Source: Caedibacter taeniospiralis (GTDB lineage: Bacteria; Pseudomonadota; Gammaproteobacteria; Francisellales; Francisellaceae). From it: 26,497 bases of DNA. The notes beneath the pieces are model-generated. The model worked only from the letters and a program-made list of their open reading frames with translations, did not search any database and was not told where the DNA came from. Positions within the stretch are counted from its first letter, which is position 1. Every line of letters starts with the position of its first letter. The stretch lies in contig NZ_PGGB02000002.1 in NCBI RefSeq assembly GCF_002803295.2, forward strand, positions 37,252 to 63,748. The letters are read 5' to 3'. Both the position numbers and the translations under genes were made by a program. Positions 5,175-25,137 of this stretch are shown one piece after another.

Positions 5175-6794
5175 TTACACCCCACCACGTACACACATAA
5201 TGTAAAAATTCCTTGGTGCACTTCCATATGCAGTCTCTACGCTGGTCTTATCAGCATAATGCAAGTCACCATCCCAGGTTCGTACTGTCCAGCCGTAACT
5301 GGAATTTTTTTCGGTATTAGCAAGGGTAGTACTTGTCCAATATTCTCCTTTTATATCATCATTTCCGCCTGAAATATTTTCAAATGGGGTATGTAGATTC
5401 AGCTGATCAGCCTGATTCGTAACTGATAGATCCAGCAAGCTCATCCATTCAAATACATTGGGAGCACGCCAGTCATCCTTATCTGCCAAGGATAAATTGG
5501 CACAAGTTTTTATGGCATCCCGCCAGTTTAATGGGTTGCCTTCATTATTAAGGCTGGGATCTTTTTGCCATATCAATCCCGATAAGGTATCTATAACGGT
5601 CCCATCGTTATTATCATTGAAGCGTGAAGCAATATTCCATTGCAAACCTGTTTGATGCTCGCCATCTTCTCCTGAGCCACTACATGATCTTTCAACACCA
5701 TCTATGCCATAACATAATTTCTGACCAGTTTGCAGTACAGGACTACTGCTGTCAGGTACCGCTTCACCTCTGACACACCAGGTTCTCACCCTGCTGTCAC
5801 TTGCTTTTTCTAACAATCCATAAAGTGTATTACCATCGGTTAATCCTATTGCCCAGGCATAACTCGTATTCGCCATGACTGTTGTGCTACTCCAGTAGCC
5901 TTTGTTAACGTTAGAGAATCCTAAGGCATTTAAAATATCCATTGGTTTTGCGCCATAGTTAATAATACTTTGCAATTCATTGCGATTTGGTAGGCGCCAA
6001 TCACTATATTCACCCTGGTTAAGCTCCATGCAGGTTGTCAGTGCGGTTGTCCAATCCACTGTATTTCCTTCATTATTAACACTAGGGTCTTGCTGCCACA
6101 TAAGTCCTGTTAGGTTATCGCTAACGGTTGTATCATTGTTCACGGTGAATCGTGATGACATATCTAGAGATTGACCTGCTTTGATTTCACCATCTTGTCT
6201 TGGAAAATCTTCCGCTTCAGTACAAAGTATTTCGCCATCCATCCCATAACACTTAGTTTGACCTGTTGCAGAAATAATCCTATTAGAAGGCAGAAAAGTC
6301 ATTGAAATCGGGTATTTAATCACACTGTTGGTCGCGCCATCCAGTGTGGCAACAATTTCTCCAGAGACATTTTTTCCTAAACCTGAAGTATCGGTGATAT
6401 TAAATGCAATATTGCAGCTTTCTCCTGGCTGAAGGACTGCACCTGTTTGAGTCACAGGATCATAACAGTTGGCGTTAGCTCCCACCCCATTTGTGTTGGT
6501 TAGGCTAAACTGAACACCCTCCACCATAGGATAAGTAATGTTATTAACATGAATACTGTTGTAAGTTACAGCACCAACAGGAATAGATGCACCTCGACCC
6601 GAATTACTTATAGTTGCCTCAAAATACCCTGGAATATTTGAAAGAATCGTCATAGGCACATCACGCGCAACCTGTCCTGTAACCTGAGCTGCGATGGGGG
6701 TACTGATATTTTCTTCGCCGCTGCTACCGCCACCGCAGCCTGTAAGAAGTGTTGCTAACATTAGTGCACTTAAGTGTCTTTTAGTGATTTTCAT
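5175..6794 (-). CDS. Lipoprotein with an N-terminal Cys-pair beta-sandwich domain and two tandem DUF1566 (Lcl C-terminal, lectin-like) domains
   Basis: The lipobox is MKITKRHLSALMLATLLTG/CGGGS. Two DUF1566 units carry CYG.DG...GL(M/I)WQ.DPS.NNEGN..W..A...C..L......DWR.PN..E.......YW(S/T)STT. The antisense track ORFs at 5458 and 5980 are mutually similar and lie 522 nt apart, which confirms the internal duplication. Confidence 0.9.
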   Translation of the reverse strand: MKITKRHLSALMLATLLTGCGGGSSGEENISTPIAAQVTGQVARDVPMTILSNIPGYFEATISNSGRGASIPVGAVTYNSIHVNNITYPMVEGVQFSLTNTNGVGANANCYDPVTQTGAVLQPGESCNIAFNITDTSGLGKNVSGEIVATLDGATNSVIKYPISMTFLPSNRIISATGQTKCYGMDGEILCTEAEDFPRQDGEIKAGQSLDMSSRFTVNNDTTVSDNLTGLMWQQDPSVNNEGNTVDWTTALTTCMELNQGEYSDWRLPNRNELQSIINYGAKPMDILNALGFSNVNKGYWSSTTVMANTSYAWAIGLTDGNTLYGLLEKASDSRVRTWCVRGEAVPDSSSPVLQTGQKLCYGIDGVERSCSGSGEDGEHQTGLQWNIASRFNDNNDGTVIDTLSGLIWQKDPSLNNEGNPLNWRDAIKTCANLSLADKDDWRAPNVFEWMSLLDLSVTNQADQLNLHTPFENISGGNDDIKGEYWTSTTLANTEKNSSYGWTVRTWDGDLHYADKTSVETAYGSAPRNFYIMCVRGGV

Positions 6795-6964
6795 TCTATT
6801 TTCCTTATGGTTTCTAGTGTTTTTAATATCAAGTGTGATTTATACTTACACCAAAGAAGGTTGGATAACGACCTTATCGATTTGGTGAGTGTATTTTATG
6901 ACCAGAAAATAGAATTGAAGAGTGGGGAAGTTTGTGAAACAAAAGGAATTTTTCCCAGGGGGAG
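6731..6964 (-). repeat. Copy A of the duplicated promoter/5'UTR/lipoprotein-signal module
   Basis: It aligns without gaps to 13821-14054 at an offset of exactly 7,090 nt, with about 204/234 identical by hand count. The 170 nt non-coding part matches at about 150/170. Shared elements are a candidate -10 cataaaat (TAAAAT = 6893-6898 on the minus strand), the dyad ggaatttttcc (6945-6955) and the inverted repeat caccaaa/tttggtg (6849-6855 / 6881-6887). Confidence 0.85.
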
Positions 6965-7223
6965 TTTGTGTTGTTTAGCCGAAAATTCGGCAACAGCTTT
7001 TATTTAAGGTTTTAAAGAAGGCTCTTTTGGTGTTTCAGGGAGGTATAAAAAAAGTGATGACGGTGTTGTTTAATTCCCATAAATATTGTAGTTTTATGAC
7101 AATTAATGCAAACCTGGTACAGCTCAGGTAAAGGGATAACGAAGTGATTAAGACTCAAGATTTGCTGGATGAACAGCAATGTTATTATGATGGTTATAGT
7201 GGATACACAACAATAATGAAAAT

Positions 7224-7579
7224 TTAGTGTTGGGTTTTACTTTTTAACTCTTTTTTCAATTTCAATACAGCACCACGATCAAGACCTGTACATTCAACCA
7301 CCAAATCATCACTGAGTCCTTTGGTAAGCATGGCTTTAGCTGTATGCTCTTTTTCTAAAAAGCGACCTTGCTGTATACCTTTTTGTACTCCTTGCTGTTC
7401 CCATTTCTCCGCTACCGTCATAACATCACCTTTCAAATTTGGTTTACTGTGGATGATTCTATCATAAAATTCTTCTGTTTCCATATCCGTTCGCCCGGCA
7501 GATACGTCATTAAAAAGCAAACGGCGAAGTCTCTATTGCTAATTAAATCCTTGAAAACGTGATCATGTTTATTTGTCAT
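7224..7579 (-). pseudogene. Rpn-family recombination-promoting nuclease/putative transposase (YhgA-like) remnant with a large internal deletion and a frameshift
   Basis: The N-terminus from the ATG at 7579 reads MTNKHDHVFKDLISNRDFAVCFLMTYLPGE, the HD.VFK...FL...LP signature of RpnA-like proteins. It runs straight into the family's C-terminal tail in another frame (MTVAEKWEQQGVQKGIQQGRFLEKEHTAKAMLTKGLSDDLVVECTGL). The ~180-aa PD-(D/E)XK core is missing. Confidence 0.7.
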
Positions 7580-7663
7580 TTATTACCTTAAGAAAAGCAT
7601 TAACCCCTTTTCCCCTACTGGAATCATCAAAACTTTTGAAAATAAATCCGATATTCTCCAGCG

Positions 7664-7686
7664 GTTACGTAACTGAAGTTACGTAA
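7664..7686. repeat. Palindrome/direct repeat gttacgtaac-tgaa-gttacgtaa
   Basis: It is read directly from the sequence. gttacgtaac is a perfect 10-bp palindrome, repeated 4 nt later. It lies just upstream of the decayed Rpn gene. Function unknown. Confidence 0.3.
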
Positions 7687-7737
7687 GGTACCACAAACCT
7701 GGCATCAGCTACAATACACGCTTTTGTCTTTTGGGCG

Positions 7738-7860
7738 ATGACCATATTTCCACCTGCTCTAATGGTGCTAAGCCCCCATGCGCTTTGAAAAACACCCTAC
7801 CTCGCAAGCCCCTTGAAAAGAGGGGAATAAGCGGCAGGTGGGCGGGAAGATGGAAGATGA
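7738..7860. repeat. Composite repeat block: REP-like unit (7772-7800), a small hairpin, and a module shared with the window end
   Basis: 7805-7858 aligns collinearly with the reverse complement of 26428-26497. The exact blocks are aaagaggggaat (12 nt), gtgggc and ggaagatgg. The minus strand of 7772-7800 reads GTAGGGTGtttttcaaAGCGCATGGGGGC. The 8-mers ccacctgc (7750-7757) and gcaggtgg (7834-7841) form an inverted pair. Confidence 0.55.
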
Positions 7861-7968
7861 TCGGTGCCGTCTTTATGTAAGCAGAAGACCTGCAGGCGGA
7901 TACATTCCAAACTTGTGAGTTTAGAATGCGGCTGGGAGGAAGCTTAGCTTGAAACAAAGTATAAAATA

Positions 7969-8211
7969 TCAGGATTCGTAAGGGTTTTTAACGCGTACAG
8001 GGGTTGTTTTCTCGTCTCTGCTATTAATTCCTAGCTGACCGTAGTAATTATCACCCCAACAATATAAGCCGCCGGTGATATCAATGGCACATGTATGGTA
8101 GAGACCTAAACTTACCTGAGTTACCTGATCAACCTTTAAACCTTCGCCAGGGTGGACTTTTACAGGAACAGAACTGGCGGTGTTTTGATTATTTCCTATT
8201 TGTCCAAACAT
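7969..8211 (-). CDS. C-terminal RCC1 blade fragment (end of blade 6 plus blade 7) of the interrupted giant lipoprotein gene
   Basis: It is in frame with 8242-9906, separated by TAG 8242-8244 plus 10 sense codons (PGGLYCWGYN). It contains GLYCWGDNYYGQLG. It is not credible as an independent gene. Confidence 0.55.
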   Translation of the reverse strand: MFGQIGNNQNTASSVPVKVHPGEGLKVDQVTQVSLGLYHTCAIDITGGLYCWGDNYYGQLGINSRDEKTTPVRVKNPYES

Positions 8212-8241
8212 GTTATAACCCCAGCAGTATAATCCTCCTGG

Positions 8242-9906
8242 CTAGGTAATTGCACATTGTGATTTATCTCCACCAGAAAATCCTAACGTGGCAATGCGAT
8301 TTGACGTGAACCCTTCTGTTCCATCACTAATTTTTGTTGCCTGAGAGTGAATGCCTGTGTTCGCATCCCCCTGACCTAAAGCCCCTAGCATATTATTTCC
8401 CCAACTATATAGCTGGTGATTGGAGTCAATAGCGTATGCTGCATTATAACCTAAACTTACTGAGCTAATGTGACTACTATCAAAACCTGATGCTAAATTG
8501 CTTGGTACTTTAACAGGATTATAAGCCAAGGTGCTAGATTCTGTGCCTGTGATAGCATTCCGTTGATTTCCCCAGCAATATAAACTATTGGATAGGGTTA
8601 TGGCACAAATACTATCTCGAACTACACTTATTTCTTTTACATGATCAGAATCAAATCTATCTTCACCAAAACCCACTGATTCTAATTTAACAGGGGTGCT
8701 TTTAACTATCATTGCAAAATCATCATTAACATCAAACACGCCCCAGTAATAAAGTGATTGCTTGTCTCCTTGTTGACTAATAGCATAAATTGCTCCTGTA
8801 CCTATCGCAACACTAATAACATTGTCAGGATTAAAACCCTCGCTGCCTGCCTTTATTTTTTGAGGAGTGGCTTGCCTTGTGACATCTAGAGATGTTGTGA
8901 GCTGTCCATATTGATTATTGCCCCAACAATAAAGTTGATGATTATCTGTAATGGCACAAGTATTTTGGCGACCAACTGAAACAGATAAGACATTATCTGG
9001 AGTAAAACCCTGATCTCCAGCAACAACCGCGGTGGGGGTAGATATGTATGACTTATTTCCTATTCCATCTCCCAATTCTCCCCACGCACCACTACCCCAG
9101 CAATATAATTTATGCCGATAATCAATTGCGCAGGTTGTACTGTTACCAGAAGCTACCTGCAACCAGGGATAAACCATCTTAGTATTAATGGTAATGTTTT
9201 GTGCGCTGGCATTTTCGGCATTAACCACTAACCTGGATTCGTAGCTGGCATCCCAAGAGCTGACTGTCGCAGGATTAGCAGGATAGTTTCCGCTTAAAGT
9301 CACCGCACAGCTTTCGCCAACTCCTAAGGTTTTACCGTCACAGTTGCTTGACAGTAATACGCCAGGAGAACCAATTGCGTCAATAGTTTCCAGTGCATTT
9401 GCTTTTAATGTAACAGAACGCACTCCTGTATTTTTCACCCAGATAGTCGTTTTGAACTCAGGATTACTATATAGCTCAAGGGCTCTGGTCTGTGGCTGAT
9501 CATCACTATCCACCAGCGTAAACTCTTCTGAGGTTATTATGGTATTAAAGCTTGCTTTGGCATTCTCATGCAGGTTGTTACCCACTTCATCAGCCAATAA
9601 CCGTACTTCAACAGCGCTGGTCGTTACTGGCGCATCTTTTGCCACTTTAATATAGGCGGTGCATGATTCCCCTGGGGCAAGACTGTCTTTGACACTGCAA
9701 GAATCATCGGCATCCGAATAGCTTAGTGACAGCCCCTCGTGTGTGCCATTTATCATAAGATATGAGCCAATAGTAGCGCCTTGATAAGTTCTAAGGGTAA
9801 ACGGTCCATTATTGGTAACCGTCAACGGGTACTCAAGGTCGGTCGTATCTGAAATGGGCATAACTGTTGGTATCTGTATTGTGGCTGTGCTCTTTTGAAT
9901 TATCAC
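8242..9906 (-). CDS. Middle segment of the interrupted giant gene: two Cys-pair beta-sandwich domains plus RCC1 blades 1-6
   Basis: The track start is GTG at 9906, and the frame stays open upstream to the TAG at 9982-9984. Motifs are DDSCSVKDSLAPGESC and SSNCDGKTLGVGESC, followed by repeated CAI(T/D)....LY(C/S/Y)WG...G.LG blades. Confidence 0.7.
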   Translation of the reverse strand: MIIQKSTATIQIPTVMPISDTTDLEYPLTVTNNGPFTLRTYQGATIGSYLMINGTHEGLSLSYSDADDSCSVKDSLAPGESCTAYIKVAKDAPVTTSAVEVRLLADEVGNNLHENAKASFNTIITSEEFTLVDSDDQPQTRALELYSNPEFKTTIWVKNTGVRSVTLKANALETIDAIGSPGVLLSSNCDGKTLGVGESCAVTLSGNYPANPATVSSWDASYESRLVVNAENASAQNITINTKMVYPWLQVASGNSTTCAIDYRHKLYCWGSGAWGELGDGIGNKSYISTPTAVVAGDQGFTPDNVLSVSVGRQNTCAITDNHQLYCWGNNQYGQLTTSLDVTRQATPQKIKAGSEGFNPDNVISVAIGTGAIYAISQQGDKQSLYYWGVFDVNDDFAMIVKSTPVKLESVGFGEDRFDSDHVKEISVVRDSICAITLSNSLYCWGNQRNAITGTESSTLAYNPVKVPSNLASGFDSSHISSVSLGYNAAYAIDSNHQLYSWGNNMLGALGQGDANTGIHSQATKISDGTEGFTSNRIATLGFSGGDKSQCAIT

Positions 9907-9981
9907 TTCTGCCGAGTTTACCTTGGTTTTCCCTGAATTATCCTTATAGTTTAGGTGAAGATAAGCAGACTCTCCTGTATG

Positions 9982-12900
9982 CTAGGCATCCTTATCGGCA
10001 TGAAGCGTGATATTACAGCTTTGTTTGGCAGCTAAGACGCCTGTGCACTGATTGCTTTGAATGCTGATGCCATAAAGGGTGTCATCAAGCTGTGCCTGAA
10101 CTAATTCAAGTGCCTGACTGGTCTGATTGGTAAAGGTAATGGTATGTTGTTCTGTTGCAATGGTGACGGGTGAAACACTGATCGCTTGGTTCGCCACAAA
10201 AATAGCAGGGTGAGTAACATCACTATTGGCAGCACCCAACGCTAAATAATGTGAGTTTGTATTGTCTGCGAGATTATCCTTATACATTGTAAGAGCCTCT
10301 GCTGCGGATGACTTAAGCGCAATGTCCAGTCTTGCCTTTTGATTGGGAGCCTGGTAGCTCAACATGATTTTGCCTGGTTGTTCGGGTAATACCAGTTTAT
10401 TGCCATTGAACTTGACAAAGGCGATCTCCTGATACAGTTCATCGGGCATATTGCTGAAATCCACATAGGCATTATTGAGTCCTGTGGTGGATGAAAAGGA
10501 AAGTACAGAAGTATTATCAGGAATAAAATCTACGGTTACATTTCCTTGCTCAAAGTCCATGGATTTCTGACTATCTACCGCCGTTGTATCAAACTGCATA
10601 ATCGTTTCAGTCATAAGGTTTTGAGTCTCCAGATCTTCAATCTCAAACTTAAGCTCGCCCTTAAACTCTGCACTTAGGTCACTTAAGGTGACATTGAATT
10701 GAAGTGTGGCCTTTTCACCAGGTTGCAAAGTAACACCCTGACTGCCATCCCATAAATTACCATTGACCATGGGGGCACTTGTATCAAACAGAGCACCCGC
10801 GGGAGCAGTGACATTGACCAGCTTGATACTGTGAGTATTAATATTGGTGAACTCAGCTTGAGCTAGGGCTGTTTTTCCTATTAAAATAGTTTGCGGGATC
10901 AGCGATTTTGGTGTCATCAACATATTATCCAGTGCGGGATTAAGCAAAATGCTACCGACAGGCGCTTCTTGCAGATTCCCCACCTTTTTACTCATTAAAA
11001 CATAATTCCCTGACGGAAGGTCTTTGTCGTGAGCAATAAGCGCAATCGTTGCCTGGGCCCCATCGGCAACTCCTTTGGTGACGGAGTTTCCTTTGGTGCT
11101 ATCGGTAATTTCAATCTTATCTGAAGATACAACATTACCCTGGGCATCACGTACTTCAAAGGCATCAGCCACTGAAGTAATTCCAAAAATACTAAAGCTA
11201 TTATTGGCTATGCCATCATCACTATTGCTAAGAATAACATCCGTTGTGCTGGTTTCACCCTGAGTCTTAGGCAGATGCATGATGATATAACCCGATGCAG
11301 ATTTTGCGGTTAATGATGCCGATGCAATATTGAGCGATATATCACTTTCATAAACATTCCCTTCGAGCCCTTCTACGTTCAAAGATACTTTCATTGTGTG
11401 TTGACCGTTGGGTACTTCTTGAGCCGCAGTTAATGTGATAATCTGATCCGCGTCAGGCATGATTTCGCCGCTTAGCTTATCCGCTTGTATCCCTAGCGGA
11501 AGATCACTAATCGTAAAGGTAACCAGTTTGGATGTTGGATTCGTGAGTTTTAAGTATTTTTGACCTGGAGCGATATACGAAACACTTGAGGGTTCAAAAT
11601 GCACAATACTGGTAGAAACTGAAACAGCAGGATAAATCGTTGCATGATTGTTGCTTTTTAGCGCAATTATTTTGTTCGTTACGTTTTGGTTAAGTGCAAC
11701 CTGTGCATTTTTAAGTGCATTCAAATTATCGCTTGTAAGGGCGAAATCAAGATGGATATGCTTATGTGCTTTTGGTAATAAATCCCCTGATAAGGTTAAA
11801 ATACCCGTGTCAGGATTATAACCATTACCTGAGAAACTCTGGTAAATTGCTGCATCCAATTTGGATAAATCCAGCGTAATATTTTGCGCACGTACACTGC
11901 CCTGGTTATCAATCACTACATCCAGACCTGTGCTGGCGTCAACATTGATACCATTGAGGCTTTGCAAGCTTGTATCAAGTGTAGAGGAAGCAACAAATTG
12001 AGTATTAAAGGCAGGTGTTGCATAAATTACGCTGTCATTATTGAATGCTAAGCGCAATATTCCGTTGACACTGACACCTTCTGTGGCTGTCACACGACAT
12101 TGATAAACTTTTGTTTTACCAGGTTCAATGATTTCTCCTGCTTTAAGATCTCCACAATCCCAGGAAGCGCCATCACTATGGACATCACTGAAATCAACGG
12201 CTGATATTGTCAATATCGTTTCACCAGGATTAGCGATTTTAAAACTCATCAAGCCCTGGTTGCCTGGCGCTACTCTAGCAGGAAGTGACTGCATCATAAT
12301 GACATTGGCACCCTCCGGAGAAGCTTGCAAATCAATCATCGCAATCGTGGCGGATTTAACGTTGTTTTTCGCAATGGCATTGAGTTTATATGTACCTAAA
12401 GCCGCATCTTTATTGCTTGATTGAATACCAATCTGACAACTGTTACCTGGTAGCAACTGAGCACCTTTACAGGAGTTCATTGGACTATCAACAATTTTCA
12501 AATCACCCCCAGCCACACTAAACTGATCACTTAGTTTATCGGCTAGATAGGCGATATATTTGCCTTTATTGACGATATTCAGGTAGCTTGCTTTGGCGTT
12601 GGTCGAGCTGTTTGATCTTAAAACAACAGGATTATCTTCCTCTACACTTAACTGGGTACTGGCATCAATGAGTGCGGTTAAATTGACGGAATACATGTGC
12701 CCTGAGCTATCACTTAAAATAGCGTTAAATGGATACTCTCCTGAGATGGCGTTTTTTGCTGCTGACACCTTAAATTCGATGCTATCACCTGGCAATACCT
12801 GGTCTCCTGAGCCAACACTAGAAATAATGCTAATATATTGCGGATGATCAACAGAGAATTCTAAAGAGTTGAAACGCAGTTTACCTGCATTGCTTGGAAT

Positions 12901-13884
12901 CGTAAGAATAATACTGTCATTATTTCCCTTAGAGATGGAGACAGCCTTGTTACTCATATCAAAGGGTTTATCGCTGGCAGTAAGCGCAGGCGCTACTTTA
13001 TTGGCTGCCGTCGCGCTCCCCACATAAAGCTCATTGATTTCCAAAGCACCATTATTCTCTAAACTACTAAGTAAGTTAGCATCTTTTAATACCTCTGATG
13101 CCTGACCTTTGACAAAGAACGTAATCTTTTGACTTCCTGCAGCAGGAATATTAGGAACAATAATACGTTTTTTCTTCTCGTAATAAATACCACCTGCTAA
13201 TGTATTCCAATCTATGGCGTTAATTAACGCATCTGGTAGCTGCGTAAGATCGATGTACGTACCGTTGATTGCTGAGTCTGCTGTGTTATTTAAAATAAAT
13301 TCTGTTTGAGCATTTGGACGTATGCTGGCAGCCTTAGAGGAGGATACCGCTGAAGTCAGTGCAAGCTGATCCGCCGGTACAAAGTGTGTATCAATGGCGA
13401 TTTTAGAAGAAATATCACCGCTATTAGATTTTGCTGAAAATATTAAGTTTCCTGTGATGCTTGAGTTGTCACTACCACTTACAGCTATAAATTGAGAGCA
13501 GCTCTCCCCTGGGTTTAAGTGAGCACCAACTACACCATTCCAACAAGCTTTATTCGCGCCGACCTGTGCTGTTTGATCCAAAGTAAATTCAACACTGGCA
13601 TTACCTGTTTTATTCGTCTGGTCAGATAATCCTGTAATGATCATCGTGTTATCACTTACCGTGCCTGCGCCAACTATTGAAGACAATGTTACGGGGTTGC
13701 TTAGTTTAATTTCCATTACGCCATCGGCATCGGAGGCGATGGTTTGAGGAAGAGAAATGACGGATGTCAGATTTAATGGCGTTGCAGGCGTGACATTTCC
13801 GCCATTTCCTTCGCTGCCGCCACCACATCCGCCAAGAAGGGTTGCTAACATCAGTGAACTTAAGTGTTTTTTAGTGATCTTCAT
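9982..13884 (-). CDS. Giant surface lipoprotein, N-terminal 1300 aa: a lipobox followed by many beta-sandwich domains resembling choice-of-anchor-D/ASH folds
   Basis: The lipobox is MKITKKHLSSLMLATLLGG/CGGGS. The C....L.PG.SC motif recurs (ACWNGVVGAHLNPGESC; SCKGAQLLPGNSC; QCTGVLAAKQSC). The gene ends at an in-frame TAG that cuts through a domain. Confidence 0.85.
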   Translation of the reverse strand: MKITKKHLSSLMLATLLGGCGGGSEGNGGNVTPATPLNLTSVISLPQTIASDADGVMEIKLSNPVTLSSIVGAGTVSDNTMIITGLSDQTNKTGNASVEFTLDQTAQVGANKACWNGVVGAHLNPGESCSQFIAVSGSDNSSITGNLIFSAKSNSGDISSKIAIDTHFVPADQLALTSAVSSSKAASIRPNAQTEFILNNTADSAINGTYIDLTQLPDALINAIDWNTLAGGIYYEKKKRIIVPNIPAAGSQKITFFVKGQASEVLKDANLLSSLENNGALEINELYVGSATAANKVAPALTASDKPFDMSNKAVSISKGNNDSIILTIPSNAGKLRFNSLEFSVDHPQYISIISSVGSGDQVLPGDSIEFKVSAAKNAISGEYPFNAILSDSSGHMYSVNLTALIDASTQLSVEEDNPVVLRSNSSTNAKASYLNIVNKGKYIAYLADKLSDQFSVAGGDLKIVDSPMNSCKGAQLLPGNSCQIGIQSSNKDAALGTYKLNAIAKNNVKSATIAMIDLQASPEGANVIMMQSLPARVAPGNQGLMSFKIANPGETILTISAVDFSDVHSDGASWDCGDLKAGEIIEPGKTKVYQCRVTATEGVSVNGILRLAFNNDSVIYATPAFNTQFVASSTLDTSLQSLNGINVDASTGLDVVIDNQGSVRAQNITLDLSKLDAAIYQSFSGNGYNPDTGILTLSGDLLPKAHKHIHLDFALTSDNLNALKNAQVALNQNVTNKIIALKSNNHATIYPAVSVSTSIVHFEPSSVSYIAPGQKYLKLTNPTSKLVTFTISDLPLGIQADKLSGEIMPDADQIITLTAAQEVPNGQHTMKVSLNVEGLEGNVYESDISLNIASASLTAKSASGYIIMHLPKTQGETSTTDVILSNSDDGIANNSFSIFGITSVADAFEVRDAQGNVVSSDKIEITDSTKGNSVTKGVADGAQATIALIAHDKDLPSGNYVLMSKKVGNLQEAPVGSILLNPALDNMLMTPKSLIPQTILIGKTALAQAEFTNINTHSIKLVNVTAPAGALFDTSAPMVNGNLWDGSQGVTLQPGEKATLQFNVTLSDLSAEFKGELKFEIEDLETQNLMTETIMQFDTTAVDSQKSMDFEQGNVTVDFIPDNTSVLSFSSTTGLNNAYVDFSNMPDELYQEIAFVKFNGNKLVLPEQPGKIMLSYQAPNQKARLDIALKSSAAEALTMYKDNLADNTNSHYLALGAANSDVTHPAIFVANQAISVSPVTIATEQHTITFTNQTSQALELVQAQLDDTLYGISIQSNQCTGVLAAKQSCNITLHADKDA

Positions 13885-14054
13885 TCTGTTTTCCTTATGG
13901 TTTTTGATGTTTTTAACATCAGTTGTGATTTACGCTTACACCAAAGAAGATTCAATAATGACCTTCTCGATTTGGTGAGTGCATTTTATGACCAGAAAAC
14001 AGATTTGAAGAGTGGGGAAGTTTGTTGAATAAAAGGAATTTTTCCCAGGGGGAG
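13821..14054 (-). repeat. Copy B of the duplicated promoter/5'UTR/lipoprotein-signal module
   Basis: It is the gapless partner of 6731-6964 (see that entry). The candidate -10 TAAAAT is at 13983-13988 (minus strand), the dyad ggaatttttcc at 14035-14045, and the inverted repeat caccaaa/tttggtg at 13939-13945 / 13971-13977. Confidence 0.85.
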
Positions 14055-17636: not shown

Positions 17637-18725
17637 CTAAATAATATTGAGAATAAGGCATCTGCGACAATAACAAGGAAAAAGGAAAATTGAGTAAACA
17701 ACGCTTTTTGTCGTCTCTTGACCAATGCTTAAAGAATTATTTTTTACAACCGTGCCTCGATAACAGCCCACGGTGCCGATGATTATGGCAAAAAAAGGAG
17801 CCTTGATTAAGCCTGTGAAATAGTTGTTAAAAGATATAGCTGTAGAAAAGCGTTGCAAAAAATCGAAGAAGCTGATGCCAAGGGAGGCTTTAGCCATGAG
17901 CATGCCCCCAATGCAGCTGATGATATCAGCAACCACAATAAGAAGTGGCAGAGAAATCATCATGCCAATAATGCGTGGTAAAATAAGGCGCTTAATCGGG
18001 CTTATGCCAAATGTTCTAAGCGCATCGATTTCTTGTTGGACTTTCATCGAGCCAAGTTCAGCTGCGTAAGATGATGCGGATCTTCCCGCAACGATAATCG
18101 CCGTAATCAAAGGAGCAAATTCACGTAATAAGGAAATGCCCAACAAGTCGACGACAAAAATATTGGCGCCATAGATTTTAAGCTGGGAGCCGATCTGGTA
18201 ACAAAGCACAATGCCGATGAGAAAGCAAAGAAGTGATACAATAGGAACAGCTTTCGCGCCAGTTTGAATGATGATGTCGAGTAAAAGGCGCCATTTAGTT
18301 GCAAACGGGGTACGAATGACTTGCAGGTAGCTCATGACGGTGGCACCTATAAAGGCAATAAGGTTCTTACTGTCTTTGATGTAATTTGTTGTTTGTTCAC
18401 CAATTTGATAAACCTTCTCGTAAGTATTTAAAGGCTGTAAACGGCTATCATAGGAGGTATAGTTCTTATGAATCAGATCAATAAGGTTTTGTTGTATCTT
18501 TGTTGCCACAATGGTGGTATTTGGAAACAGCTGTTGGATTTTATAGATGAAATAAGCGCCAGAAGTATCAAGTTTTCCAACCTTCTCTACATCAATCTTC
18601 ATGATTTTTTGCTTAATATTTTTGATCTTGGCAAGTATCCTTTGGTCAATGGTTTGCCAACACCACTGCCCTGTTAAGGCTAAGATATTGTCAACAACGT
18701 GAAACTGAGCTTGATGGTTGGGCAT
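17637..18725 (-). CDS. MlaE-family ABC permease fused to an N-terminal STAS/MlaB-like domain; probable 1-nt frameshift near the 3' end
   Basis: The polytopic C-terminal half is typical of MlaE (LLREFAPLITAIIVAGRSASSYAAELGSMKVQQEIDAL). The likely start is ATG 18725 (MPNHQAQFHVVD); the track start at 18848 adds an implausible leader. The last 16 aa (FPCYCRRCLILNII) look out of frame; see findings. Confidence 0.85.
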   Translation of the reverse strand: MPNHQAQFHVVDNILALTGQWCWQTIDQRILAKIKNIKQKIMKIDVEKVGKLDTSGAYFIYKIQQLFPNTTIVATKIQQNLIDLIHKNYTSYDSRLQPLNTYEKVYQIGEQTTNYIKDSKNLIAFIGATVMSYLQVIRTPFATKWRLLLDIIIQTGAKAVPIVSLLCFLIGIVLCYQIGSQLKIYGANIFVVDLLGISLLREFAPLITAIIVAGRSASSYAAELGSMKVQQEIDALRTFGISPIKRLILPRIIGMMISLPLLIVVADIISCIGGMLMAKASLGISFFDFLQRFSTAISFNNYFTGLIKAPFFAIIIGTVGCYRGTVVKNNSLSIGQETTKSVVYSIFLFPCYCRRCLILNII

Positions 18726-18926
18726 GGAGACTTTTTCATTTTCATTATTTTTTTCATCCTTGATGACAAAATAGCGAACAACCCCACCGAAGTATAGTGG
18801 GTTACCACCAAATTCTTGGAGGCGGTTATGGCTTTTACACGTAAACATGCGATTAACTTTTGATTAATACCTGCATATAACGCACAATAGCAGCGTTTAA
18901 AATAAAATGAAAAGCTGTCAAAGTCT

Positions 18927-23817: not shown

Positions 23818-25137
23818 CTAAAGAACCTTTAATGAATTAAGCATAATCAAAAAGCAGCATAGTGTGATAATCACAGGCATTGGTTTTAATTGGGTTCTAT
23901 CCTTGATAAGAACAATGATAAACCAGCTGATCATACCCCAAACAATGCCCTCAGATATCGAAAGTGTCAGCGGCATTAAGATAATGGTCATAAAAGCAGG
24001 AACCACTTGTGAGAGATCATCCCAGTGAATTTGTTTGACCGAGCATAGCATAAAACTACCAACAATAACGAGGGCAGGTGCCACTACAAACATAGGTACC
24101 ATCATTACCAGAGGTGCTAAAAATAAAAAAGGTAAAAATAGTAAACCTGCGACAACTGCAACGAGCCCCGTGCGTCCACCAACGGAGATCCCCGTAATTG
24201 ATTCCACGTATACCGAGGTTGGCGAGCTGCCTAAAAGACCTGATGATGCTGATGCGAAAGAGTCGACAATTAATGACTTCTTAATACGAATTGGCTGACC
24301 ATCTTTATCAAACCAGTTTGAGGCTTGTGCCAGGCCAATCAGCGTGCCTGTGCTGTCAAAAATGTTAATAAATAGAAAGGTAAATATGGCTGGAATAATC
24401 GCAATTTTAAAGCTTCCCAACCAATCTATTGAGAAGAAAAGCGAAAAATCGGGTGGTGAGAATATATGTGTTGGCGTGTGCATGATAATTTCATCTCCAA
24501 ATAAGCGACCCACTGGAAAAGAAAGTACACAGCCTACAATAATCATCAGTAAAATAGCGGCTTTAAAGCGAAAGGCAAGGAAGATGATCAGGGCAAAAAA
24601 ACAGATCAAAAATATCAAGGTTTCTGCGGTCAAAGGTGCAATTTCCAAGAGCCCTGAAGGCGCTTGATGAATGAAACCTGCATTATAAAAACCAACCAAA
24701 GCAATGAAAATTCCGATACCTGCACCGAGTCCATGCTTAATGCCATCAGGAATTCCCGCAAGAATTTTAGTACGAATGTTAAAAAGGGCCAAAAGTGCAA
24801 AAATAATCCCTGACCAGAATGCCGCACCCAGTGCCACCTCCCATGGAATTCCCCAGGCTTTGACGATGGTATAAGTAAAAAATACATTCATCCCCATAGC
24901 AGGGGCAAGTGCGTAGGGGTTTCTGGCATAAAGACCCATGGCAATGGAAGCAAAGGCTGAAATGATCACAGTACTTGTTACCAGTGCGTTTTCAGGCATC
25001 CCTGCTTGAGAAAGGATTTTGGCGTTCACCACGATGATATAGAGCATTGCAAGAAAGGTAGTGATGCCTGCAATAAGCTCGGTGCGTAGGGTGGTGTTAT
25101 ATTTTGCAAATTCAAAATAATGAGATAAAAAATTCAT
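23818..25137 (-). CDS. NCS2-family purine permease, AzgA-type (adenine/guanine/hypoxanthine)
   Basis: The N-terminus FEFAKYNTTLRTELIAGITTFLAMLYIIVVNAKIL is typical of the AzgA/PurP/GhxP subfamily. It is a 439-aa polytopic protein and ends in TAG. Confidence 0.9.
   Translation of the reverse strand: MNFLSHYFEFAKYNTTLRTELIAGITTFLAMLYIIVVNAKILSQAGMPENALVTSTVIISAFASIAMGLYARNPYALAPAMGMNVFFTYTIVKAWGIPWEVALGAAFWSGIIFALLALFNIRTKILAGIPDGIKHGLGAGIGIFIALVGFYNAGFIHQAPSGLLEIAPLTAETLIFLICFFALIIFLAFRFKAAILLMIIVGCVLSFPVGRLFGDEIIMHTPTHIFSPPDFSLFFSIDWLGSFKIAIIPAIFTFLFINIFDSTGTLIGLAQASNWFDKDGQPIRIKKSLIVDSFASASSGLLGSSPTSVYVESITGISVGGRTGLVAVVAGLLFLPFLFLAPLVMMVPMFVVAPALVIVGSFMLCSVKQIHWDDLSQVVPAFMTIILMPLTLSISEGIVWGMISWFIIVLIKDRTQLKPMPVIITLCCFLIMLNSLKVL

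Follow-up and report, generated by a model that had tools for sequence, protein, structure and literature searches.

The 26,497-nt window of the Caedibacter taeniospiralis genome analysed here contains, at 13884-7969 on the reverse strand, a gene for a giant lipoprotein whose reading frame is broken by two in-frame TAG codons. The stretch was first described by a model from its letters and open reading frames (ORFs), and the anatomy given in that initial annotation, a giant, RCC1-headed lipoprotein whose gene is split by two amber codons, each inside a domain, was borne out in our analysis. The two stops are probably real, and the gene appears to have undergone an ordinary, very recent and lineage-specific double nonsense inactivation. 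The locus represents a single gene for a modular surface lipoprotein of ~1,971 amino acids with a lipobox signal, an Ig-like (immunoglobulin-like) stalk and an RCC1-like propeller, and this gene would just have been hit by two independent nonsense mutations of one base each, at Tyr1301 (TAC to TAG) and Glu1881 (GAG to TAG). A very recent double nonsense inactivation had been the first explanation offered in the initial annotation, and it is the one favoured here because a relative differing by 12 substitutions in the gene, and likewise two more distant orthologues, carry codons for Tyr and Glu at these sites.

The region 13884-7969 translates as one frame of 1,972 codons (1,971 plus a terminal TGA) with internal stops only at codons 1301 and 1881, while each of the other five frames is broken by 97-213 stops. 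The ORFs 9982-13884, 8242-9906 and 7969-8211, all on the reverse strand, lie in this common frame, as had been noticed from the letters, and retranslation agrees both with the finding that two TAG codons alone separate them and with the hand translations across the gaps (HADKDA, stop, HTGESAYLHL at the first and CAIT, stop, PGGLYCWG at the second). Stop 1 (codon 1301, 9984-9982) lies in the context GCC TAG CAT and arose from TAC by a C-to-G change at window position 9982; stop 2 (codon 1881, 8244-8242) lies in the context ACC TAG CCA and arose from GAG by a G-to-T change at 8244. Both are followed by C at the +4 position. The first and middle ORFs match the C. taeniospiralis proteins WP_100551210.1 and WP_100551209.1, respectively, without any difference, and NCBI has entered these as separate, normal proteins; the three ORFs would be better annotated as one disrupted gene.

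An alignment of orthologues, which had been proposed as a check in the initial annotation, places sense codons at both TAG sites in three uninterrupted orthologues. The orthologue of Facilibium subflavum (P0103 on contig L001; 1,955 aa) has TAT (Tyr) at stop 1 and GAA (Glu) at stop 2. It is collinear with the C. taeniospiralis frame from the signal peptide to the last propeller blade, with an identity of 47% upstream of stop 1 and 38-41% downstream. A second orthologue, P0104 (1,975 aa; WP_395947197.1, labelled C. taeniospiralis by NCBI), is collinear throughout as well, belongs to the same 90% cluster as the first ORF, and has TAC and GAG. It is encoded on the syntenic metagenome contig L002, the surroundings of which match the window in the mla operon, the LysR gene and the gene for an Lcl_C lipoprotein. 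TAC and GAG are also present in an independent contig, L003 (JACCDZ011448219.1), whose 3,765 nt of gene sequence align with the window without indels and with 12 substitutions. Tyr occupies the stop 1 site in the distant family members P0107 and P0108 as well. A scan of genome contigs with the first ORF yielded no relative, and a second scan, made with an alignment, returned Facilibium alone. Polarisation of the changes with L003, L002 and Facilibium, the latter two serving as outgroups, showed that both TAG codons are derived in the window lineage. Since three intact orthologues carry sense codons there, both are derived single-base changes.

The gene thus has what is expected of a pseudogene in having intact orthologues and stops that arose by single-base changes in its own lineage, and its domains are lost or cut: stop 1 takes away 670 aa, among them the entire propeller, and stop 2 falls in blade 6. 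Nonsense pseudogenes of host-restricted bacteria are similar in showing derived single-base stops against intact orthologues, in being accompanied by nearby lesions (here a frameshift in mlaE, a transposase remnant and a missing GH18 gene, described below), and in residing in small genomes of obligate endosymbionts such as this one of 1.3 Mb (PMC7297999). C. taeniospiralis is an obligate cytoplasmic endosymbiont of Paramecium tetraurelia, and its published genome, with 36 tRNA genes, is that of strain 51K from a laboratory Paramecium culture (PMC5773718, PMC7297999). Unlike such pseudogenes, the giant gene has been caught extremely early, at a divergence of 0.16%, with its frame otherwise perfect and its pieces annotated by NCBI as normal proteins.

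With the first TAG in place, translation would end there and the product would be at most a 1,300-aa stalk that breaks off within an Ig-like domain, without its final domains or the head. The 670 codons beyond the stop have neither a signal peptide nor a ribosome-binding site and would be effectively untranslated, and the second stop would have been neutral once the first had hit. The otherwise perfect frame would then reflect the extreme youth of the lineage and not continued selection downstream, as part of the ordinary erosion of genes in an obligate endosymbiont. The locus would show cleanly how gene loss begins in such a bacterium, and may mark a surface protein that is dispensable to this lineage.

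The substitutions that separate the window from L003 give a measure of this youth. In codons 718-1971 the changes derived in the window lineage comprise 2 nonsense, 4 nonsynonymous and 0 clearly synonymous substitutions, whereas those of the L003 lineage comprise 2 synonymous and 3 nonsynonymous ones. The four nonsynonymous changes of the window lie between 8685 and 10379 on the reverse strand. L1169Q (at 10379) and Y1225H (at 10212) are upstream of stop 1, where one of them affects a Tyr conserved in Facilibium and no synonymous change is found; S1698A (at 8793) and V1734L (at 8685) are the only further changes downstream of it. That all six derived changes are non-silent, with none clearly silent, is compatible with relaxed constraint in the window lineage, the probability of 0 synonymous changes among 6 being 0.22 under neutrality, but the sample is small. 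At the window-lineage divergence of 0.16%, ~0.15 further stop-creating events are expected over the 2 kb downstream, and because the lineage is so young the absence of further decay needs neither selection nor readthrough. The initial annotation had stressed that there is no frameshift in 5.9 kb; this is true of the frame, and the five indels that distinguish the window from L002 within the gene are all multiples of three, but at such a divergence an unbroken frame is expected and is no mark of selection or readthrough.

The ratio of nonsynonymous to synonymous divergence (dN/dS) downstream of stop 1, which had also been proposed as a check, is 0.36 in the comparison with L002 (Nei-Gojobori) against 0.20 upstream, and a three-taxon relative-rate test of the downstream part finds no window-specific excess of replacements (17 vs 19). 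The divergence between the window and L002 arose while the gene was intact, however, so that neither the ratio nor the rate test is informative on the time since the stops appeared. The synonymous divergence (dS) between the window (7969-13884) and L002 (10001-15928) is itself a mosaic that ranges from 0.03 to above 1, with ~0.03 in some 100-codon blocks and >0.8 in blades 3-6. This mosaic suggests allelic recombination or gene conversion, especially in the propeller head.

Several points weigh against a real double inactivation. Both TAG codons were read from the assembled consensus, L003 covers only codons 718-1971, and the counts of derived changes are too small to prove relaxed selection. 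The presence of 2 nonsense changes among 6 derived substitutions is a mild excess over random mutation (P ~0.02), which is in part explained by the locus having been picked for its stops; once stop 1 is taken as given, the chance that one or more of the three downstream changes creates another stop is 0.13. Furthermore, 5 of the 6 window-derived changes are transversions, and both TAG codons create the same hexamer, CCTAGC, a possible hint of an artefact or of mutational bias.

These last two points, minor in themselves, would also fit the main rival explanation, in which the strain has TAC and GAG and an intact gene, and the two stops, perhaps together with a duplication in mlaE, are errors of the draft assembly. 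The genome is a draft obtained from total Paramecium DNA (PMC5773718), and two of the only 12 gene positions at which the nearest relative, L003, differs from the window lie exactly at the stops. The bases were called, on the other hand, from Illumina MiSeq 2x300 reads, with ABySS as the assembler, and Oxford Nanopore reads only joined contigs (PMC5773718, PMC7297999). With Illumina data of this kind a wrong base seldom enters the consensus, and two in one gene would be rarer. Twelve L002 genes have a counterpart in the window, and the other 11 are without an internal stop there; elsewhere the differences between the window and L003 look ordinary, so real strain divergence exists. We consider an assembly error unlikely, and less likely than a real double nonsense inactivation.

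All six copies of CCTAGC/GCTAGG in the window (8241, 9981, 8030, 8384, 10862 and 11492) are within the giant gene, L003 having four of them as well. An enrichment of CTAG or CCTAGC as a systematic signal was considered and rejected, with CTAG observed 31 times against 40 expected and with four of the six CCTAGC copies pre-existing in L003. The clustering of the hexamer in the giant gene is probably an effect of composition.

A different reading, in which the stops are functional, had been put forward in the initial annotation as leaky readthrough or suppression; it would have the gene produce mostly a stalk-only lipoprotein and, by way of the TAG-C context or a suppressor tRNA, a minority of head-bearing protein. 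The gene does share with programmed readthrough and with amber suppression by supE/supF-type tRNAs or leaky UAG an in-frame UAG, a C at +4 and coding-looking sequence downstream: both stops are amber, the following 2 kb contain no additional stop or frameshift, and the pairwise dN/dS downstream is <1. A recoding site would be expected to keep its stop in orthologues, whereas here TAC or TAT and GAG or GAA stand in their place in L003, L002 and Facilibium. The TAG codons are not shared even with a relative that differs at 12 of ~3,760 gene positions, the dN/dS signal predates them, and the window-derived changes downstream are 2 nonsynonymous and 0 synonymous. The ancestral residues, Tyr and Glu, differ, so that one suppressor cannot restore both.

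The wider sequence context is equally unfavourable to this reading. TAG is an ordinary terminator in this DNA. It ends four solid genes of the window; one of these encodes an ABC ATPase, and its L002 orthologue uses TAG at the matching position. The genuine terminator of the permease gene at 23818-25137 is a TAG followed by C. The amber-then-C context to which the initial annotation had drawn attention is thus present at both stops but is not distinctive. No tRNA, no suppressor and no Rfam family were found in the 26,497-nt window, and the 120 nt that follow each TAG fold no more stably than shuffled sequences (z = 0.25 and 0.10), leaving the stops without a stimulatory RNA structure. The supplement of PMC7297999 makes no mention of RCC1 or a suppressor.

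In E. coli, basal readthrough of UAG is ~1e-2 or less per site, and two such events multiply to ~1e-4 or less for passage of both stops. We regard functional readthrough or suppression at this gene as highly improbable. The same holds for a newly arisen two-product gene in which the ambers are tolerated through a suppressor tRNA, a weakened release factor 1 or the TAG-C context and which makes mostly headless stalk; this too seems very doubtful. Re-initiation after the stops was also rejected, there being no Shine-Dalgarno-like sequence upstream of GTG 9906, ATG 9861 or ATG 8211, and a product restarted at any of these codons would be without a signal peptide. The locus provides no evidence for stop-codon recoding in C. 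taeniospiralis.

The architecture of the protein makes clear what the two nonsense mutations would have removed. The N-terminus, read directly from the sequence, bears the lipoprotein signal MKITKKHLSSLMLATLLGGC (13825-13884, reverse strand) with the lipobox LLGG-C at Cys20. The lipobox pattern [LVI][ASTVI][GAS]C is matched by MKITKKHLSSLMLATLLGG-C, a motif that appears to be common to the family members. The lipobox cysteine is present by inspection in 6 of the 7 aligned members, P0107 having the variant LTTGC; the lipoprotein call combines this reading with the pattern, which by itself marked 5 of the 7 and missed P0107.

The signal is followed by a stalk of ~1,550 aa (9172-13824, reverse strand) that is predicted to consist of tandem Ig-like β-sandwich domains and contains a recurrent L-x-PG-E/N-SC motif. 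An AlphaFold model of residues 21-620, built from an 11-sequence family alignment, is all-β and consists of consecutive β-sandwiches, with a mean predicted local distance difference test score (pLDDT) of 83.6. Its top Foldseek matches are ciliary central-apparatus entries (E 1e-17), with low TM-scores since such rods are multi-domain, and further matches are to alpha-2-macroglobulin domains, extender repeats of RTX adhesins and the Ig-like domains of PrgB. The Pfam scan found no family in the first 1,300 aa of the giant protein, the stalk matching HYDIN_VesB_CFA65-like_Ig (PF22544) only below the gathering threshold (E 0.0013 in P0103), and an NCBIfam search with the full-length orthologue matched no family. 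As in the Ig-repeat surface proteins of other bacteria (RTX adhesins, PrgB and Legionella Lcl), a long tandem β-sandwich rod carries a distal head. The giant protein differs from these in being anchored by an N-terminal lipobox and not through RTX and type I secretion or LPXTG, in having a stalk without an above-threshold Pfam family, and in having an RCC1-like propeller as its head.

The head occupies 7972-9171 on the reverse strand and is interrupted by stop 2. RCC1 (PF00415), RCC1_2 (PF13540) and WD40_RLD (PF25390) match above the Pfam cut-off and flank stop 2 on both sides, while profile matches to UVR8, HERC2 and RCC1 have E values from 1e-40 to 1e-18, UVR8 and HERC2 being at 1e-40. Seven [LY][YC]WG blade motifs are found at residues 1593, 1651, 1711, 1768, 1825, 1885 and 1940, and by these sequence criteria the head is assigned as a seven-blade RCC1-like domain. 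Stop 2, at residue 1881, is four residues ahead of the sixth motif and has RCC1 matches on either side; the statement in the initial annotation that it lies inside blade 6 was accurate, as was its corollary that a complete propeller exists only if the three ORFs are joined, the motif positions showing that blades 6 and 7 need the third.

Stop 1, too, lies inside a domain, as had been proposed. The 50 residues that precede it match the VesC Ig-like domain weakly (E 0.0027), and the model of the middle ORF begins with ~30 poorly predicted residues (pLDDT 37-53) that form the only long low-confidence stretch there. On the predicted structure these residues are the orphaned end of the Ig domain that stop 1 cuts. 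The rest of the model comprises two β-sandwich domains, a second poor stretch at about residues 200-270, and an incomplete RCC1-like propeller, and its Foldseek matches are to UVR8, RPGR and HERC2 (E 1e-18). We infer that the intact protein would have been a surface-exposed rod presenting a ligand-binding head.

The head thus resembles RCC1, UVR8, HERC2 and RPGR in being a seven-blade RCC1-type propeller, as judged from Pfam, PDB profiles and Foldseek. It differs from them in ending a lipoprotein stalk, which would presumably make it extracytoplasmic, and nothing suggests an activity as a guanine nucleotide exchange factor for Ran. RCC1 repeats are also known from Legionella effectors such as LegG1/PpgA. 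Blade 3 of the window allele (8690-8760, residues ~1711-1735) is without the G-x-L-G motif. In both the window and L003 the G-x-x-G-x-L-G loop is missing, the sequence being WGVFDVNDDFAM where L002 has WGQNAYGSLGIG, and the difference from L002 consists of an in-frame 15-nt indel plus substitutions. The loss of this loop is unlinked to the stops because the intact L003 shares it. A hidden, compensated frameshift in this degenerate blade was rejected, the other frames being full of stops and the 15-nt indel being in-frame.

A further reading is an adaptive truncation, in which life inside the host or in the laboratory positively selected for removal of the RCC1 head, or for loss of the protein altogether, with the 1,300-aa stalk as the functional product. 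The nonsense excess among the few derived changes (P ~0.02) would agree with such selection, the first ORF retains its signal peptide and promoter cassette, and a headless form is conceivable in a modular family with exchangeable heads. Stop 1 lies within an Ig-like domain and not at a boundary, however, and the second stop is irrelevant to this model. That both derived changes upstream of stop 1 are nonsynonymous suggests that the first ORF is also unconstrained. No headless orthologue of ~1,300 aa was seen in the family, in which P0109 (1,109 aa) looks like a fragment. We hold adaptive truncation to be very improbable, and no result supports either it or functional readthrough.

An exhaustive HMMER search showed that the giant protein belongs to a small family of lipoproteins of ~1,000-1,975 aa that have a common Ig-like stalk and differ in their C-terminal heads. 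The head is an RCC1 propeller in Caedibacter, Facilibium and P0108, an Lcl_C domain in P0110 and another β-rich domain in P0107, and Reg_prop/Rax2-type propeller matches are found in the shorter P0113 and P0117. No Pfam model above threshold and no NCBIfam model covers the family stalk. The window itself contains a paralogue at 5175-6794 (reverse strand), an intact 539-aa lipoprotein with a matching signal peptide and N-terminal stalk domain and an Lcl_C (DUF1566) head (Pfam Lcl_C, E 6e-45). The Lcl_C head of this neighbour and of the distant member P0110 is the one also found in Legionella Lcl.

The N-terminal 176-187 aa of the paralogue are 34-38% identical to the giant protein, and the two genes share a cassette of ~220-240 bp with ~88% identity (13813-14054 at the giant gene and 6744-6963 at the Lcl_C lipoprotein gene) that comprises the upstream region and the signal peptide MKITK[KR]HLS[SA]LMLATLL[GT]GCGGG. 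The outline of an uncharacterised family of ~1,900-2,000-aa lipoproteins with an Ig-like stalk and interchangeable heads is a by-product of this analysis. The family may have a role in host contact in the Fastidiosibacteraceae, which is a modest, descriptive point.

Further lesions are found in the vicinity of the giant gene. In mlaE (ORF 17637-18848, reverse strand) a 7-bp tandem duplication (TTTTCCT on the coding strand) at 17674-17689, relative to L002, shifts the frame of the last ~17 codons, so that the protein ends in SIFLFPCYCRRCLILNII in the window and in SIFLVIVADALFSILFSARGI in L002; this would be a second strain-specific lesion, or possibly an error of the assembly. L002 and Facilibium L001 carry a chitinase-like GH18 gene immediately after the giant gene; it is absent from the window and from L003. 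In L002 (15929-19038) the giant and GH18 genes are separated by a 178-aa ORF, which is likewise missing from the window and L003. The GH18 stretch (L002 15929-19038, L001 6644-9496) is replaced in the window (6795-7968) and in L003 by only ~1.2 kb. This replacement contains, at 7224-7520 on the reverse strand, the C-terminal remnant of an Rpn-family nuclease or putative transposase (TIGR01784, E 2.4e-7, model positions 215-268 of 273). The mlaE frameshift and the Rpn remnant in place of GH18 give a local context that points to erosion. Within the Rpn remnant, L003 has three extra copies of the 12-bp unit CAGCAAGGTATG at about window position 7374, and it lacks 21 bp that are present at window 7581-7601, both being indel polymorphisms in a decayed intergenic stretch.

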